Of a stretch of DNA of 64,000 nt, positions 2,429 through 56,075 are shown piece after piece. Origin of the DNA: a virus; the UHGV virus genome UHGV-0370399; one strand, given 5' to 3'. The notes below the pieces were generated by a model. That model worked only from the letters and a program-made list of their open reading frames with translations, made no database searches and was not told the DNA's origin. Each line of letters opens with the position of its first letter. Position 1 is the stretch's first letter. The position numbers and the translations under genes were made by a program.

Positions 2429-2846
2429 AAGCTCTCCGAATAACCCTATTAAACATCTCTAAAGTCAGCTTTCCAGATTCTAAATGTGGCATAACAAGCT
2501 TTAAAGCTTTTTCAACATCATGCACAACATCTATTATACCTTCTGCATAGGCTTCTACAAGGATATCTTTTACATTTTGTGATTTACCTTTTTGTGGTAT
2601 CACTAGACGCATATCAAACTCATTTGCTTGAGGATGGTTCTTACCACGCCAGAAACCGTCCTTATCAAAGCTTATAAAGTTATCCTCATTAAAATTAATA
2701 CCACAAACCTTAAACTTATCTAAAACTATGCAGTTGAGAGGGTAATCATCACTTGCATCATTCATTCCAAGAAACTTAACAGTAGCTATATACCTCTGTG
2801 TCTTTGAATCTACAATGTCAAGTTCTTTACCTATGTACTCTTTCAT
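2391..2846 (-). CDS. hypothetical protein
   Basis: 151-aa ORF in minus-strand array. Confidence 0.5.
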   Translation of the reverse strand: MKEYIGKELDIVDSKTQRYIATVKFLGMNDASDDYPLNCIVLDKFKVCGINFNEDNFISFDKDGFWRGKNHPQANEFDMRLVIPQKGKSQNVKDILVEAYAEGIIDVVHDVEKALKLVMPHLESGKLTLEMFNRVIRRAYESKRDSAKSNA

Positions 2847-2849
2847 CTC

Positions 2850-3122
2850 TTAAATCCTATCAATTTGAAACTCTTCAGGTAACTCAGCCACCACTTTTAA
2901 ATAGTAAGCATCAGAGATTGTATGCTTTGTCTCATAGCTACCATTCTTAATCCAGTTATAATTTTCTGGTATTCCATCATCATTACAAAAACCTGAGTAC
3001 ATAATTGCTCTGTGGATTATATTTTTATTAGAGTATGCAACATCTACAATATAGTATGTTTTTTCTTTCCAACCACCTTCAGGTTTACAAATACCTGAGA
3101 TACCCTCTAATTCTGGTGTCAT
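2850..3122 (-). CDS. hypothetical protein
   Basis: 90-aa ORF tightly packed with neighbours. Confidence 0.5.
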   Translation of the reverse strand: MTPELEGISGICKPEGGWKEKTYYIVDVAYSNKNIIHRAIMYSGFCNDDGIPENYNWIKNGSYETKHTISDAYYLKVVAELPEEFQIDRI

Positions 3123-3175
3123 TTCGCTACCTTCTAAGTTTCTACAAAGGGGCTATCAAGTAACCCCTCAAGTTA

Positions 3176-3400
3176 CTACTCAGACTTTTCAGTCTTCTTA
3201 TCGGATTTCTTACTAGTCTTCTTCTCAGCTTTCTGTTCAGGCTCCTTCTCAGAAGTTGCCTTAATAACCATATCAAGAAGCTCTGATAAGTCACTCTTCA
3301 GCAAAGTAACAGGCTGCTCGTTGTAGAAGTTTTTGTCAAGATAAACTTTGAACTCTTCTATAGAAGGAAATCCAAAAATTGGTACAGGTGTCTTAATCAT
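3176..3400 (-). CDS. hypothetical protein with Lys/Glu-rich C-terminus
   Basis: 74-aa ORF; C-terminal KKTSKKSDKKTEKSE tail. Confidence 0.45.
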   Translation of the reverse strand: MIKTPVPIFGFPSIEEFKVYLDKNFYNEQPVTLLKSDLSELLDMVIKATSEKEPEQKAEKKTSKKSDKKTEKSE

Positions 3401-44953: not shown

Positions 44954-45478
44954 TCAACTTAGTTTTGCAAACTCTCCGTGGAGTTTAATAGCAGCTTCAC
45001 AGTAAGCTTTATGGGCTTCTTCTGGTGTGTCAAACATACCAAGATGATAGTTTTTACCTTGTAAACGTATCATTGCTCGAAACCTTTTACTTATCTTCTG
45101 TACACCTTTTGGCAACCCAGATGGGGACTTTCTTGACCGATTGCAAGAGTTTTGTGAAGCTGTACAAACCCTTAAATTCAAGTACCTATTGTCCCAACCG
45201 TCCCCATTCTTATGGTCAACCTGTAAGTTTTTATCAGGCAGGTATCCATCCACATATAGTATTGCTAGACGGTTAGCTTGGTAGCCTTTACCATCAAGCA
45301 ATAACTGAACAGACTTGTGACCATCTGTGTTTATCCTATAATTTCCTGCCTTTTTACCTCCAAAACGAGAGTTGAAGTTCTTATTGCCTCGTGATACCGG
45401 CTCTCTAAACTTCCAAGTAAAGACCCCTGTTTCGGGGTCGTAGTCCAATAGCTCCTTAAGACGAATTTCTGTAATCAT
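44954..45478 (-). CDS. HNH homing endonuclease with AP2-like DNA-binding domain
   Basis: Motifs LLDYDPETGVFTW, RLAILYVDGYLP, VDHKNGDGWDNRYLNLRVC, and AP2-like GKNYHLGMFDTPEEAHKAY; paralog of the 55081-55581 gene; start taken at internal Met 45478. Confidence 0.7.
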   Translation of the reverse strand: MITEIRLKELLDYDPETGVFTWKFREPVSRGNKNFNSRFGGKKAGNYRINTDGHKSVQLLLDGKGYQANRLAILYVDGYLPDKNLQVDHKNGDGWDNRYLNLRVCTASQNSCNRSRKSPSGLPKGVQKISKRFRAMIRLQGKNYHLGMFDTPEEAHKAYCEAAIKLHGEFAKLS

Positions 45479-52662: not shown

Positions 52663-52918
52663 TAGCTATAAAAGAGAGGGGTTCACACCCTTCTTTGAAG
52701 AAAAAAGTTTAAATAAATTTCATGAAGAGTGTTTGACAAAGATTGATAGGTTCTATAGAATGCTCCACATGAAATGCGATGGAGAAGTTGAAATAGAACA
52801 ACAGTTCCATCAAAGTATGATTACAGTCATCATTACACTGCCTCAGCATAATATTGGTTGGCTGTTTATAATGAAAGAAAATGTGTTTGAATATCAAGTA
52901 TATCGGAGAATATCATGA
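52625..52918 (+). CDS. hypothetical protein
   Basis: 97-aa ORF overlapping the helicase 3' end. Confidence 0.35.
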   Translation: MRMQMTARSKLSDSYKREGFTPFFEEKSLNKFHEECLTKIDRFYRMLHMKCDGEVEIEQQFHQSMITVIITLPQHNIGWLFIMKENVFEYQVYRRIS

Positions 52919-53071: not shown

Positions 53072-53100
53072 TTGACAATAGAGTATCAACAAATTAGAAT
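53072..53100 (+). promoter_or_regulatory. Candidate sigma70-like promoter (TTGACA, 17 bp, TAGAAT) upstream of the SSB-like gene
   Basis: TTTGACAATAGAGTATCAACAAATTAGAAT read directly. Confidence 0.5.
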
Positions 53101-54056: not shown

Positions 54057-55103
54057 ATGGAGAAGTACACATTAACAAAACTTCCCGATTCAGTTACACA
54101 TGTTTTTATTGACTCTGACAGTATTGCCTATAAAGGCGCTTGTGTAGTTGAGAAAGCAAAATATAAATATGTCAATAAACTCACAGCAGAAGAATCTGAA
54201 TCATTTGATAATGCAAAAGATGCTGCAAGATGGTTAGCAGACCAGAGAATCCTTGTGGAAGAGCTTGGCCTGACATTTGATGAAGATGAATGGGAAAGAC
54301 AGACTTGGAAAGAAGCTAAGAGTGAAAAAGAAGCTATCATGGCTACTCAACAGGTGCTTCAGGAATGGCTTAAGATTGTTGGTAAAGAGAGAACTTGGGT
54401 AGGTTATTTAACAGAGAAAGGTGTGCATAAACATAAAGACATTAAAGGTCTTGAGCACCAATATCAAGGTAACCGCAAAGATGCTGTCACACCAACACAC
54501 TTAGTTGCTTGTCGTGAGTATCTTCTGTCAAGACCAGAGTTTAAATTGATTCTTGATGGATTTGAAGCTGACTCTATCGTTATCGCTAAAGCTGAAAAGA
54601 TGGGAAAAAAGGCTGCCTTAATGAGTATTGATAAAGACCTTCGCCAAGCTGAAGGTACTTACTGCATTGATATGACCTATGAAAAATCACCTTTAATTTT
54701 CATTGCTGATAACAACGTTGGTGAAATTTGGGATTGTCCAATAAAATCGACACCAAAAGCTAAGAAGACAGTTGGTGTAGGTTTTAAATTTCTTTGTTAT
54801 CAAGCTGTGGCTGGTGATAATGCGGATAATTACTTTGGTTTAAAGGGTGTTGGCAAAGCTGCTGTGATGAAGGCTCTTGAAGGGAAAACAACTTACAAAG
54901 AGTGTCTTGATGCAATTTACGAGCTATATGCTAAGAAAGACTCCTACACTTATGTATCATGGGATGGTCAAACAATTACCAGAACACCTTTAGAATTAAT
55001 GCAGCAACACTTTTTCTTAGCTTATCAGGAAAGAAATAAAAAAGACGATTTTACTTTTGATAAGTATGGGTGGACACCAAATGTTAACTCAACAAACTCT
55101 TAA
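54057..55103 (+). CDS. 5'-3' exonuclease / flap endonuclease (FEN / RNase H-like)
   Basis: Helix-3-turn-helix motif FGLKGVGKAAVMKAL and acidic clusters (FIDSDS, SIDKD); 348 aa. Confidence 0.6.
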   Translation: MEKYTLTKLPDSVTHVFIDSDSIAYKGACVVEKAKYKYVNKLTAEESESFDNAKDAARWLADQRILVEELGLTFDEDEWERQTWKEAKSEKEAIMATQQVLQEWLKIVGKERTWVGYLTEKGVHKHKDIKGLEHQYQGNRKDAVTPTHLVACREYLLSRPEFKLILDGFEADSIVIAKAEKMGKKAALMSIDKDLRQAEGTYCIDMTYEKSPLIFIADNNVGEIWDCPIKSTPKAKKTVGVGFKFLCYQAVAGDNADNYFGLKGVGKAAVMKALEGKTTYKECLDAIYELYAKKDSYTYVSWDGQTITRTPLELMQQHFFLAYQERNKKDDFTFDKYGWTPNVNSTNS

Positions 55104-55581
55104 AGAATACCTGCACTATGACCCCGAAACAGGGGTCTTTACTTGGTTAGTTGGTAGAAGAGGTAAGGCCAAAGCTGGCTCAGTAGCAGGTCTTAAACAC
55201 CATAGTGGTTATATCTATATAAAACTCTTCGGAAAAAGATATGCAGCACACAGACTGGCAGTCTTGTATATGAAAGGCTACCTCCCAAAATTTGTTGACC
55301 ACAAGAATGGTATCAGGCACGACAACTGGTTCGACAATTTGAGAGAGTGTAGCAGGTCAGACAACAACTGCAATGCAGTCAAAAGAAAAGATAATAAGTC
55401 TGGTGTGAAGGGTGTATATTACCACAAGCAAAGAGGTAGATGGGCTGCACAAGTCAAGCATAATAAAGTATGCTACCATCTAGGTTTATTTGACTCTATC
55501 ACTGAGGCTGAATCAGTTGTCAAAAAGAAAAGAGAAGAACTACATAAAGAGTTTTCAAATCACGGAGAAGCTTATGAATGA
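55081..55581 (+). CDS. HNH homing endonuclease with AP2-like domain
   Basis: Motifs LHYDPETGVFTW, RLAVLYMKGYLP, VDHKNGIRHDNWFDNLREC, GVYYHKQRGRWAAQV; start taken at Met 55081. Confidence 0.7.
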   Translation: MLTQQTLKEYLHYDPETGVFTWLVGRRGKAKAGSVAGLKHHSGYIYIKLFGKRYAAHRLAVLYMKGYLPKFVDHKNGIRHDNWFDNLRECSRSDNNCNAVKRKDNKSGVKGVYYHKQRGRWAAQVKHNKVCYHLGLFDSITEAESVVKKKREELHKEFSNHGEAYE

Positions 55582-56075
55582 AGATTAAAGGATTTGGCAA
55601 TTGCCCTACCTATGGTCATTGGGTGTCTTTATGTGGGGAAGTTGACCCCACTAAACATTTTGGCTTTGTCTATTTAGTGCACTGTAAGAAGACTGGACAA
55701 TATTATATCGGAAAGAAACAGCTTAACAGTGTGACCAAAAGAAAAGTTGCTGGGAAGACTCGGAAGAAGGTAGTCACTAAGGAAAGTGATTGGATGACTT
55801 ACGAAACCTCTTCTGAGTATATTAAAAAAGATATTGAGAGCTTTGGAAAAGAATTTTTTGACTTTTACATTATCCAAACCTACTACACAAAAGGTGGCCT
55901 AGTCTATGGTGAAGCAAACCTTCAACATAAATTCGATGTAATGACAAAAAGGATTGACTCTAAGCTCAGACTCTTCTACAATGCCAATATTGCAGCAATT
56001 AAGTTTATTACTAAAGAAACTTATGAAGATGCTGAAAAAAGAATCCATAAGGTAATGAAAGCAAATTGTGCTTGA
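55578..56075 (+). CDS. GIY-YIG-like nuclease (possible second homing endonuclease)
   Basis: N-terminal FGFVYLVHCKKTGQYYIGKK fits the GIY-(10-11)-YIG spacing pattern. Confidence 0.4.
   Translation: MKIKGFGNCPTYGHWVSLCGEVDPTKHFGFVYLVHCKKTGQYYIGKKQLNSVTKRKVAGKTRKKVVTKESDWMTYETSSEYIKKDIESFGKEFFDFYIIQTYYTKGGLVYGEANLQHKFDVMTKRIDSKLRLFYNANIAAIKFITKETYEDAEKRIHKVMKANCA

Follow-up and report, generated by a model that had tools for sequence, protein, structure and literature searches.

An HNH-AP2 homing endonuclease gene at the junction of conserved exonuclease and GIY-YIG nuclease genes in a Felix O1-like phage

Genes and features of the junction

The window analyzed here is a 64,000-nucleotide stretch of the virus genome UHGV-0370399. 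It derives from a Felixounavirus (Felix O1-like phage), with 96-97% identity over 5 kb to Felix O1 and its relatives. Two small nuclease genes follow a gene for a 5'-3' exonuclease (Table 1). The gene order is primase/helicase, hypothetical, exonuclease, GIY-YIG nuclease, hypothetical, MazG, and NrdA, with the HNH-AP2 gene placed between exonuclease and GIY-YIG nuclease in the window. Besides its PHROG assignment, the exonuclease has weak matches to the 5_3_exonuc Pfam and PolI NCBIfam models. A sequence-only reading had described an HNH-AP2 gene and then a GIY-YIG-like gene after a FEN-like gene, an overlap of about 23 bp with the FEN-like 3' end, the standing of this HNH-AP2 gene as the second paralog, and a GIY-YIG-like motif in the 165-aa protein. 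These descriptions are borne out by Pfam matches (HNH_3 and AP2 in the first protein, PF19835 in the second), by a 23-nt overlap of the exonuclease stop with the HNH-AP2 open reading frame, by the other HNH-AP2 copy on the opposite strand, and by predicted fold matches that include I-TevI. Both nuclease genes already carry HNH or GIY-YIG annotation in public records; the locus is an ordinary one, and the finding was largely already known.

Table 1. Features at and around the exonuclease/GIY-YIG junction in the window
Feature	Position	Strand	Basis
5'-3' exonuclease gene, FEN / T7-T3 gp6-like, core, 348 aa	54057..55103	+	phrog_107 'exonuclease', 8e-66
Tract of raised silent divergence, 3' two-thirds of the exonuclease gene	54400..55072	+	identity falls and dS rises toward the site
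HNH cassette, 491 bp	55073..55563	+	delimited against empty-site genomes
HNH_3 + AP2 homing endonuclease gene, free-standing; lineage A; 166 aa counted from ATG	55081..55581	+	Pfam, PHROG
SegE-type GIY-YIG nuclease gene, core, catalytic domain only, 165 aa	55578..56075	+	PF19835, fold
Divergent 5' tract of the GIY-YIG gene, first ~120 bp	55578..55700	+	two deep haplotypes among relatives
Other HNH-AP2 paralog in the window	44966..45478	-	41% amino acid identity; tblastn 2e-28

The HNH catalytic motif of the frame at 55081 matches PF13392 (HNH_3) at 4.4e-12, and residues D73-H74, N82, N86, and N95 are kept in each of the three HNH lineages (A, B, and C) found at this site. The AP2 DNA-binding domain covers approximately residues 107-143 (PF00847, 4.9e-8; score 33.6 bits, cut-off 33.3). 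A scan for promoters and terminators showed no HNH-specific promoter and did not exceed the number of sites in shuffled sequence. RNA folding near the start of the HNH gene likewise does not surpass that of shuffles (z = -1.1). An exact 18-nt hairpin is common to the HNH-AP2 genes at 55081 and 44966. A perfect hairpin at the HNH 5' end as a general trait of the DPETGVFTW motif is ruled out by about 85 codings of the motif in IMG/VR, where hairpin coding is confined to low-GC, probably Felix-like contigs.

The ends of the cassette are defined by alignment with the empty-site genomes tootiki (MN850647), ph2-2, BPS17W1 (MG646669), phiSUSP1, and Sf17 (MF327004). The phage momo likewise lacks the HNH gene. 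All three lineages share these boundaries, which also coincide between Felixounavirus and Mooglevirus. The final codons of the exonuclease come from the cassette, so that the protein ends in ...KYGW-TPNVNSTNS* in the window and in ...KYNW-EPCMNED* at empty sites. At its other end, the cassette stops just short of the GGAG ribosome-binding site of the GIY-YIG gene. The HNH-AP2 and GIY-YIG genes are translationally coupled in the window through an ATGA overlap. The GIY-YIG gene is coupled to whichever gene lies upstream, which in empty genomes is the exonuclease gene, with equal coupling.

The 165-aa protein has a single Pfam match, to the SegE-type GIY-YIG family PF19835 (E 9.4e-28). Its AF2 model (pLDDT 94) has the catalytic domain of I-TevI as the top PDB fold match. 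Across 72 homologues, Y32, Y43, G45, K47, E112, and N135 do not vary, and the catalytic Tyr/Tyr/Glu/Asn set (Y32, Y43, E112, N135) is intact. The protein also bears an N-terminal extension and a basic beta-hairpin. The PF19835 domain stops at residue 138 of 165, and the remaining 27 residues are modeled as a single helix (150-163); a C-terminal NUMOD or helix-turn-helix DNA-binding module is absent, with no second domain match and only this helix in the tail. A sequence search against PDB chains gave nothing meaningful (best E about 1). An hhalign comparison of the family profile with a single I-TevI sequence gave a weak alignment (probability 3%), in which GIY and YIG were aligned and a counterpart of the I-TevI arginine R27 was not placed with confidence. 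The name 'NAD synthetase', which RefSeq and phrog_447 attach to the protein, is unsupported: the sole Pfam match is to PF19835, NCBIfam gives no match, and the fold is that of GIY-YIG enzymes. Our literature searches turned up no functional study of the protein.

A sporadic HNH gene beside a fixed GIY-YIG gene

The HNH cassette is polymorphic among relatives. Of 54 junctions sampled evenly from the ~286 records that hold the exonuclease/GIY-YIG junction, 33 lack an insert, and the other 21 contain one of 483-493 bp. Across the roughly 286 relatives, the HNH gene is missing from ~60-70% and carried by about one third: full-length HNH genes occur in 92 records (43 of lineage A, 28 of lineage B, and 21 of lineage C), and the empty junction is intact in the remaining genomes. 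The three lineages have only 55-59% protein identity to one another, compared with 86-100% identity of the flanking genes, and these lineages hold the identical site across two genera. Within lineages B and C, HNH dN/dS is 0.04-0.06 (dN/dS and dS were computed with our own Nei-Gojobori script). In lineage A, the window and Felix O1 give a dN/dS of 0.32, a relaxed constraint calculated from few substitutions. Between Felixounavirus and Mooglevirus, lineages B and C differ by a dS of 1.2-1.5, approximately as much as the genomes. Thus, the polymorphism is old, and differential loss contributes some share of it. Lineage B alleles at least 99% identical occur in 12 records, in otherwise different genomes.

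The GIY-YIG gene has a different distribution. It occupies one place per record in 298 records, and the exonuclease-GIY-YIG junction is contiguous in 258 of 286. The gene order given above, apart from the HNH gene, recurs in at least four named genera (Felixounavirus, Mooglevirus, Suspvirus, and Kolesnikvirus, the last represented by Erwinia phage phiEa21-4) and in the unclassified Hafnia phage Zyzzx; phiEa21-4 and Zyzzx have the GIY-YIG gene and lack the HNH insert. Its dN/dS is 0.03-0.07, and its divergence is in step with that of its neighbors. Compared with its counterparts in the Erwinia and Hafnia phages, the GIY-YIG protein retains 61-62% amino acid identity, more than the exonuclease (55-59%) or MazG (40-43%). 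The GIY-YIG gene is therefore not mobile; it is a vertically inherited core gene of the phage subfamily under strong purifying selection. Since the HNH gene is sporadic and the GIY-YIG gene fixed, the site is a hotspot for one nuclease family and not for two. The proposal that a mobile-endonuclease hotspot lies here holds for HNH-AP2 (21 of 54 junctions, three lineages at one site) and fails for GIY-YIG, and with it falls the idea of two stacked mobile families. The synteny comparison with related phages that had been suggested found a locus that varies in the presence of the HNH gene.

Sequence divergence rises steeply toward the site. The identity of the exonuclease gene to those of tootiki, heid, and ULIM8 declines in steps from 97% to 89%, 80%, and 76% on approaching it, compared with 95-100% elsewhere. 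Between the window and tootiki, exonuclease dS is 0.06 over codons 1-115 and 1.25 over codons 116-340 (dN/dS 0.056). On the other side, the GIY-YIG genes of the window and FelixO1 are 79% identical over their opening ~120 bp and 95% over the remainder, and those of Sf16 and Sf17 are 80% and 98% identical (dS 1.69 and 0.087). Overall, identity near the site is 76-81% as against 95-100% a few hundred base pairs away, and dS is ~20-fold higher in the 0.7 kb of exonuclease sequence next to the site and in the ~120 bp with which the GIY-YIG gene begins. This is the pattern expected of intronless homing. Of the two deep haplotypes of the GIY-YIG 5' tract, the window has the common one, which is found in empty-site genomes too. 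Empty-site genomes also occur with both haplotypes of the exonuclease 3' region, and flank haplotype and HNH state do not correspond one-to-one. For lineage A, an immunity that arises through flank substitution is therefore no more than a possibility.

Origin of the arrangement

The history that we favor, with a probability of about 0.8, is that an HNH homing cassette invaded an ancestral junction, and that the GIY-YIG gene is a vertically inherited core gene outside the mobile element. In the ancestral state, the exonuclease and GIY-YIG core genes would have overlapped by 8-11 nt, an arrangement kept in the outgroup genera and most relatives. In this genome, the 491-bp free-standing cassette lies exactly at their junction, where it supplies a substitute C-terminus and stop for the exonuclease and leaves the GIY-YIG gene its ribosome-binding site and its start-stop overlap. 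Neither host gene is thus damaged. The HNH-AP2 gene is selfish and typical of homing-endonuclease genes; cleavage and homing themselves we infer. In a mixed infection, its enzyme would cut or nick the empty allele near the junction, and repair from the HNH-bearing genome would copy the cassette plus adjacent flank. Such co-copying would have left the deep, mostly synonymous divergence in the exonuclease 3' and GIY-YIG 5' regions.

Three other readings bear on the pair. The sequence-only reading took both genes to be mobile and to have landed independently at one hotspot. Both families are best known as homing endonucleases, the GenBank label of the second gene is 'GIY-YIG homing endonuclease', and sequence and fold group its product with SegE and I-TevI. 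However, the gene is present once per genome and at the same position in all ~290 relatives, including HNH-less outgroup genera. Its divergence tracks that of its neighbors at the low dN/dS given above, and its product has no DNA-binding domain, which leaves independent insertion very improbable. The adjacency could instead be functional, with the GIY-YIG protein a partner to HNH-AP2 or other homing endonucleases that nicks the second strand or assists homing in trans. Nickases are numerous among phage HNH homing enzymes. Trans-homing has a precedent in T4 mobE, which promotes that of a defunct endonuclease (PMC2790892). In addition, the two genes are coupled by ATGA, and a domain-only nuclease needs targeting. 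Yet in two thirds of relatives, and throughout whole genera, no HNH gene adjoins the GIY-YIG gene, empty genomes couple it equally to the exonuclease gene, and the cyanophage homologues stand alone. A partnership is accordingly unlikely.

A similarly small chance attaches to a history in which the HNH gene became fixed long ago, ceased to home, and has since been lost many times, with no ongoing invasion. The divergence of lineages B and C between genera, which is like that of the genomes, fits such a history, as does the dN/dS of 0.32 between the window and Felix O1 in lineage A. Against it, the outgroups Kolesnikvirus, Hafnia phage, and Suspvirus have an intact exonuclease/GIY-YIG overlap and no trace of the cassette, and the same exact overlap at empty sites of Felixounavirus and Mooglevirus would need many perfectly precise deletions. 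Strong purifying selection in lineages B and C and the near-identical lineage B alleles in otherwise different genomes likewise count against repeated loss.

The GIY-YIG gene most likely encodes a domesticated housekeeping endonuclease, a function that we infer. Our best guess at its origin, a tentative one, is a homing-endonuclease catalytic domain that has become a low-specificity DNA endonuclease. Together with the adjacent exonuclease, it might serve replication or recombination, or degrade host DNA so that nucleotides can be salvaged, much as T4 EndoII does, or T7 gp3 with gp6. Among 2266 representative clusters, relatives that consist of the domain only (130-180 aa) are frequent, and more than 200 cyanomyovirus records have a single copy each. 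One metagenomic phage lineage has the GIY-YIG gene behind a Cas4-like exonuclease gene in a module with primase-helicase, DNA polymerase A, ThyX, and RNR. In marine contigs, a 347-aa protein with no PHROG match and no similarity to the Felix exonuclease is encoded upstream, and in cyanophages and Roseobacter phage CRP-7 no exonuclease gene adjoins the GIY-YIG gene. An 'exonuclease + GIY-YIG' pairing is thus not general outside Ounavirinae and is given little weight here. It is possible, though doubtful, that the domain-only SegE-type proteins (phrog_447) are a widespread branch of homing-endonuclease catalytic domains that phages domesticated as an essential housekeeping endonuclease, and that the gene also became a landing pad for HNH-AP2 lineages. 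The enzyme might initiate degradation of the host chromosome, or process intermediates of replication or recombination with the neighboring exonuclease. If so, the gene would be indispensable and conserved, and therefore its 5' end and junction would form a long-lived landing pad on which HNH-AP2 lineages would have cycled since before the genus split.

The finding is mainly a correction: the two nuclease genes do not represent two insertions of mobile elements, and the 165-aa protein is best annotated neither as 'homing endonuclease' nor as 'NAD synthetase'. For intronless homing, the locus is a clean natural case that lends itself to testing in coliphages and Salmonella phages, which are easily crossed; it combines empty sites with three allelic lineages of the HNH gene and steep gradients of flank divergence. 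Phylogenies of Felix O1-like therapeutic phages should omit the HNH gene and ~0.8 kb around it. The domain-only GIY-YIG nuclease is a conserved, uncharacterized core gene in a phage group that serves in Salmonella typing and biocontrol.

Comparison with known systems

HNH-AP2 proteins are a recognized class of phage homing endonucleases, with members in RB49, JSE, RB43, and Felix 01 (PMC5318435, PMC2993671). The Felix 01 members were noted in 2004 (Magnani et al., 2004, as cited in PMC5318435), and the class also appears in Petrov et al., 2010 (PMC2993671). In phages, homing endonuclease genes act as markers of recombination boundaries (PMC10055350), and gene conversion tied to homing endonucleases has been reported in the larger phage genomes in general (bioRxiv 10.1101/2021.03.08.434280). 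The gene at 55081 resembles other free-standing phage HNH-AP2 genes in combining an HNH_3 motif with AP2, in being wedged between conserved replication and nucleotide-metabolism genes, in its sporadic presence among close relatives, and in divergent flanks consistent with co-conversion. Nothing essential differs from the known genes of the class. The peculiarities of this locus are the replaced last codons of the upstream gene, the conserved cassette ends, the three 55-59% identical lineages at one site, and a polymorphism as old as the genus split. Mechanistically, T4 mobE and other genes of intronless homing are nearest.

The GIY-YIG protein compares differently. The T4 Seg proteins are roughly 200-225 aa long. 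Unlike T4 SegA-G (SegE being PF19835) and I-TevI, the 165-aa protein has no C-terminal DNA-binding domain, and unlike the Seg genes or a homing gene, its gene is fixed and vertically conserved, not sporadic. T4 endonuclease II (DenA), a tetramer, is a stand-alone GIY-YIG enzyme that initiates host-DNA breakdown. Although the GIY-YIG protein is no closer in homology to EndoII than to other GIY-YIG enzymes, both are small, lack a separate DNA-binding domain, and are encoded by conserved housekeeping phage genes. The locus likewise recalls the T7 gp3/gp6 pair, with the GIY-YIG gene adjoining a T7 gp6-like exonuclease gene and MazG and Nrd genes lying downstream.

Gene content and existing annotation

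Three overlapping open reading frames on the same strand make up the locus (54057-56075), and their coordinates are listed below together with those of neighbouring features. The HNH-AP2 gene had been read from sequence as overlapping the exonuclease gene by about 23 bp and as directly preceding a gene with a GIY-YIG-like motif; the overlap measures 23 nt, and the motif is present as FVY-x10-YIG. The HNH-AP2 stop and the GIY-YIG start share an ATGA overlap. An in-frame TTG at 55057 offers the HNH-AP2 gene an alternative start, giving 174 aa.

Features of the locus and related elements in the window
Feature	Coordinates	Strand	Matches and remarks
Sigma-70-like site 1	52733-52761	+	11/12 consensus match (TTGACA, 17 nt, TAGAAT)
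Sigma-70-like site 2	53072-53100	+	11/12 consensus match (TTGACA, 17 nt, TAGAAT)
phrog_3877 protein, 285 aa	53137-53994	+	function not assigned
5'-3' exonuclease, 348 aa	54057-55103	+	phrog_107 8e-66; weak 5_3_exonuc and PolI 5'-nuclease matches
HNH cassette, 491 bp	55073-55563		delimited against genomes lacking it
HNH-AP2 protein, 166 aa from ATG at 55081	55081-55581	+	Pfam HNH_3 4.4e-12, AP2 4.9e-8; phrog_99 'HNH endonuclease' 9e-75
18-nt inverted repeat, copy 1	55120-55137	+	GACCCCGAAACAGGGGTC
GIY-YIG protein, 165 aa	55578-56075	+	PF19835 SegE_GIY-YIG 9.4e-28, residues 21-138
Second HNH-AP2 gene	44966-45478	-	41% identical; sole other HNH-AP2 copy in the window
18-nt inverted repeat, copy 2	45422-45439	-	exact match to copy 1

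The conserved phrog_3877 protein, encoded just 5' of the exonuclease gene, has a strongly acidic C-terminal tail (...DDGDDEDLPDPDDEEDEDFDTED) that recalls T7 gp2.5-type single-stranded-DNA-binding proteins, a likeness with no domain match behind it. Both sigma-70-like sites lie upstream of the operon holding the exonuclease, HNH and GIY genes. A promoter scan found none specific to the HNH gene, and the total of promoter-like sites did not exceed that of shuffled sequence.

The locus marks no departure from known biology, and both nuclease genes are already annotated publicly. Across the surrounding 5 kb, identity to Felix O1 and to many Felixounavirus genomes is 96-97%, and the pair is labelled 'HNH (homing) endonuclease' and 'GIY-YIG homing endonuclease' in several public records. 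Published lists of phage homing endonuclease genes include HNH-AP2 as a class (PMC2993671), and citations of the Felix 01 HNH-AP2 proteins go back to 2004 (PMC5318435). Over the 5-kb region, records named 'Campylobacter phage A132/A126' (MG065664, MG065668) share about 95% identity with Felixounavirus. A 'Methanobrevibacter gottschalkii' partial protein (P0007), encoded on a contig of 88 kb, matches the GIY protein at 92% identity across about half its length. These entries appear to be Felix O1-like sequences, either mislabelled or present as contaminants.

One insertion site, three HNH lineages

In genomes with an empty site, such as tootiki and Sf17, the exonuclease gene ends in ...AAATATAATTGGGAGCC(G/T)TGTATGAATGAAGATTAA and shares 11 nt with the start of the GIY gene. 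In the window, the cassette lies between ...TATGGGTG and GGAGAAGCTTATGAATG; it supplies the last exonuclease codons and stop (TPNVNSTNS* replaces EPCMNED*) and preserves the GGAG and ATG context of the GIY gene. The identical site is used by three diverged HNH lineages: A (the window, LF82P5, Felix O1), B (heid, ULIM8, Moogle; 28 records) and C (EC6, NBEco004, Sf16; 21 records). The HNH proteins are 55-59% identical between lineages, against 86-100% for the flanking genes. Felixounavirus and Mooglevirus each harbour both B and C. Cassettes A and B have nearly identical ends (about 70 nt 5', 60 nt 3') and middles that are roughly 50-60% identical.

Close to their N-termini, both HNH-AP2 paralogs have DPETGV encoded by the 18-nt repeat, which other Ounavirinae carry unchanged in lineages A, B and C, despite saturated silent sites between lineages. 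About 85 different 27-mers encode DPETGVFTW in IMG/VR, and the perfect hairpin is confined to low-GC, probably Felix-like contigs. The repeat could have arisen by gene conversion between the 5' ends of the paralogs, or it could be an element with a lineage-specific role in regulation or recombination.

The sequence-only reading took two nuclease families stacked at one site to suggest a hotspot for mobile endonuclease insertion. Its observation is confirmed, and its interpretation is half right. A 601-bp query across the empty tootiki junction found matches in 286 records, of which 258 aligned in one place at coverage of at least 80%; among 54 junctions from an evenly spaced sample of these matches, 33 were uninterrupted and the other 21 held an insert of 483-493 bp. 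The window HNH gene was found at full length in 43 records only, whereas the GIY gene occurs once per genome in 298 phage records, including Mooglevirus, Suspvirus, Erwinia phages (Kolesnikvirus) and Hafnia phages. Among annotated loci, gene order is constant in every genus examined (primase/helicase, hypothetical, exonuclease, [HNH], GIY, hypothetical, MazG, ..., NrdA), with HNH present or absent; the phiEa21-4 and Hafnia phage Zyzzx loci lack it. The hotspot claim holds for HNH-AP2, which is typical of free-standing homing endonuclease genes and occupies a landing site in long use, but not for the GIY-YIG gene, a resident core gene forming one wall of that site.

Flank divergence and selection

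Felixounavirus genomes are 95-100% identical away from the insertion site, yet haplotypes are only 76-81% identical within about 700 bp upstream and 120 bp downstream, as unlike as separate genera. The changes are mostly silent. Between the window and tootiki, exonuclease dS is 0.06 over codons 1-115 versus 1.25 over codons 116-340, where dN/dS is 0.056. In the GIY gene, dS between Sf16 (lineage C) and Sf17 (empty) is 1.69 over codons 1-41 versus 0.087 in the rest; between the window and Felix O1, silent sites are saturated in the first 41 codons, and dS is 0.19 elsewhere. This pattern would be expected of a homing endonuclease gene that repeatedly imports foreign flanks, or that selects target-site variants, and it agrees with published accounts of recombination boundaries that coincide with homing endonuclease genes (PMC10055350; bioRxiv 10.1101/2021.03.08.434280). 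The fit is imperfect: each exonuclease 3' haplotype is seen both with and without HNH, and the window pairs a lineage A HNH with the GIY 5' haplotype typical of empty genomes. Between genera, lineages B and C show dS of 1.2-1.5, close to the divergence of the genomes themselves; the HNH polymorphism is therefore old, and losses as well as gains must have played a part.

Inside lineages B and C, HNH dN/dS is 0.04-0.06, so these genes are functional; for lineage A it is 0.32 (two genes compared, few substitutions). The GIY gene (0.03-0.07) is constrained as tightly as, or more tightly than, the exonuclease (0.03-0.09; 0.14 to Zyzzx) and MazG (0.06-0.16). Compared with its counterparts in Erwinia and Hafnia phages, the GIY protein has 61-62% amino-acid identity, against 55-59% for the exonuclease and 40-43% for MazG.

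The GIY-YIG protein and its possible role

The predicted GIY-YIG fold of the 165-aa protein is real. Beyond its Pfam match, the AlphaFold2 model (72 homologues) has a mean pLDDT of 94.2 and pTM of 0.88, and I-TevI is the sole credible Foldseek match in the PDB (probability 0.96). The nearest viral models are 'SegE-like GIY-YIG domain' proteins, some domain-only and some longer Seg-like enzymes. Y32, Y43, G45, K47, E112 and N135 are invariant in the 72-sequence alignment; we take these to include counterparts of the GIY Tyr, YIG Tyr, catalytic Glu and metal-binding Asn of I-TevI, a correspondence that leans on background knowledge of I-TevI and a weak hhalign result. The protein lacks a DNA-binding module, since only 27 residues, forming one helix, follow the Pfam domain.

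RefSeq names the gene product 'NAD synthetase', taken from phrog_447, and the name has spread over RefSeq (NC_005282, NC_041923, NC_011811, others) and cyanophage homologues. That identity is unsupported: the sole domain match is SegE_GIY-YIG and the fold is GIY-YIG. In Escherichia phage EC6 (JX560968; L004 2783-3284), the annotation gives the gene as a pair of overlapping ORFs (2783-3046 and 3009-3284), and tblastn likewise splits it into two frames; this sole disrupted copy among the loci examined reflects either a frameshift or a sequencing error.

What retains interest is an uncharacterised, widely conserved, domain-only GIY-YIG nuclease. Its family (2266 representative clusters at E <= 1e-3) mixes domain-only proteins (130-180 aa) with longer ones (200-390 aa) large enough to include a DNA-binding module, two of them with a NUMOD3 match. 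More than 200 cyanomyovirus records carry a single copy of a domain-only member, there named 'T4-like GC 213'. In one metagenomic phage lineage (RUSA22 contigs, L020-L023, 3637-5480), a gp2.5-like SSB and a Cas4-like exonuclease directly precede a domain-only SegE-type GIY gene, inside a module that also holds primase-helicase, DNA polymerase A, ThyX and RNR genes. The parts are not homologous to those of Felix O1, but their order mirrors it. In marine TARA contigs (L016-L019, 3900-5414), the GIY gene closes a ThyX-RNR operon and is preceded by a gene for a 347-aa protein with neither similarity to the Felix exonuclease nor a PHROG match. These distant, domain-only genes sit at the ends of replication and nucleotide-metabolism modules of unrelated uncultured phages.

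By analogy, the protein might tentatively be viewed as a domesticated catalytic domain now serving replication, recombination or nucleotide salvage. The case is weak because homing endonuclease genes also favour such neighbourhoods, and because cyanophage homologues lack the exonuclease neighbour and similarity to T4 EndoII is only distant. EndoII and the T7 gp3/gp6 pair are the analogues invoked for this role.
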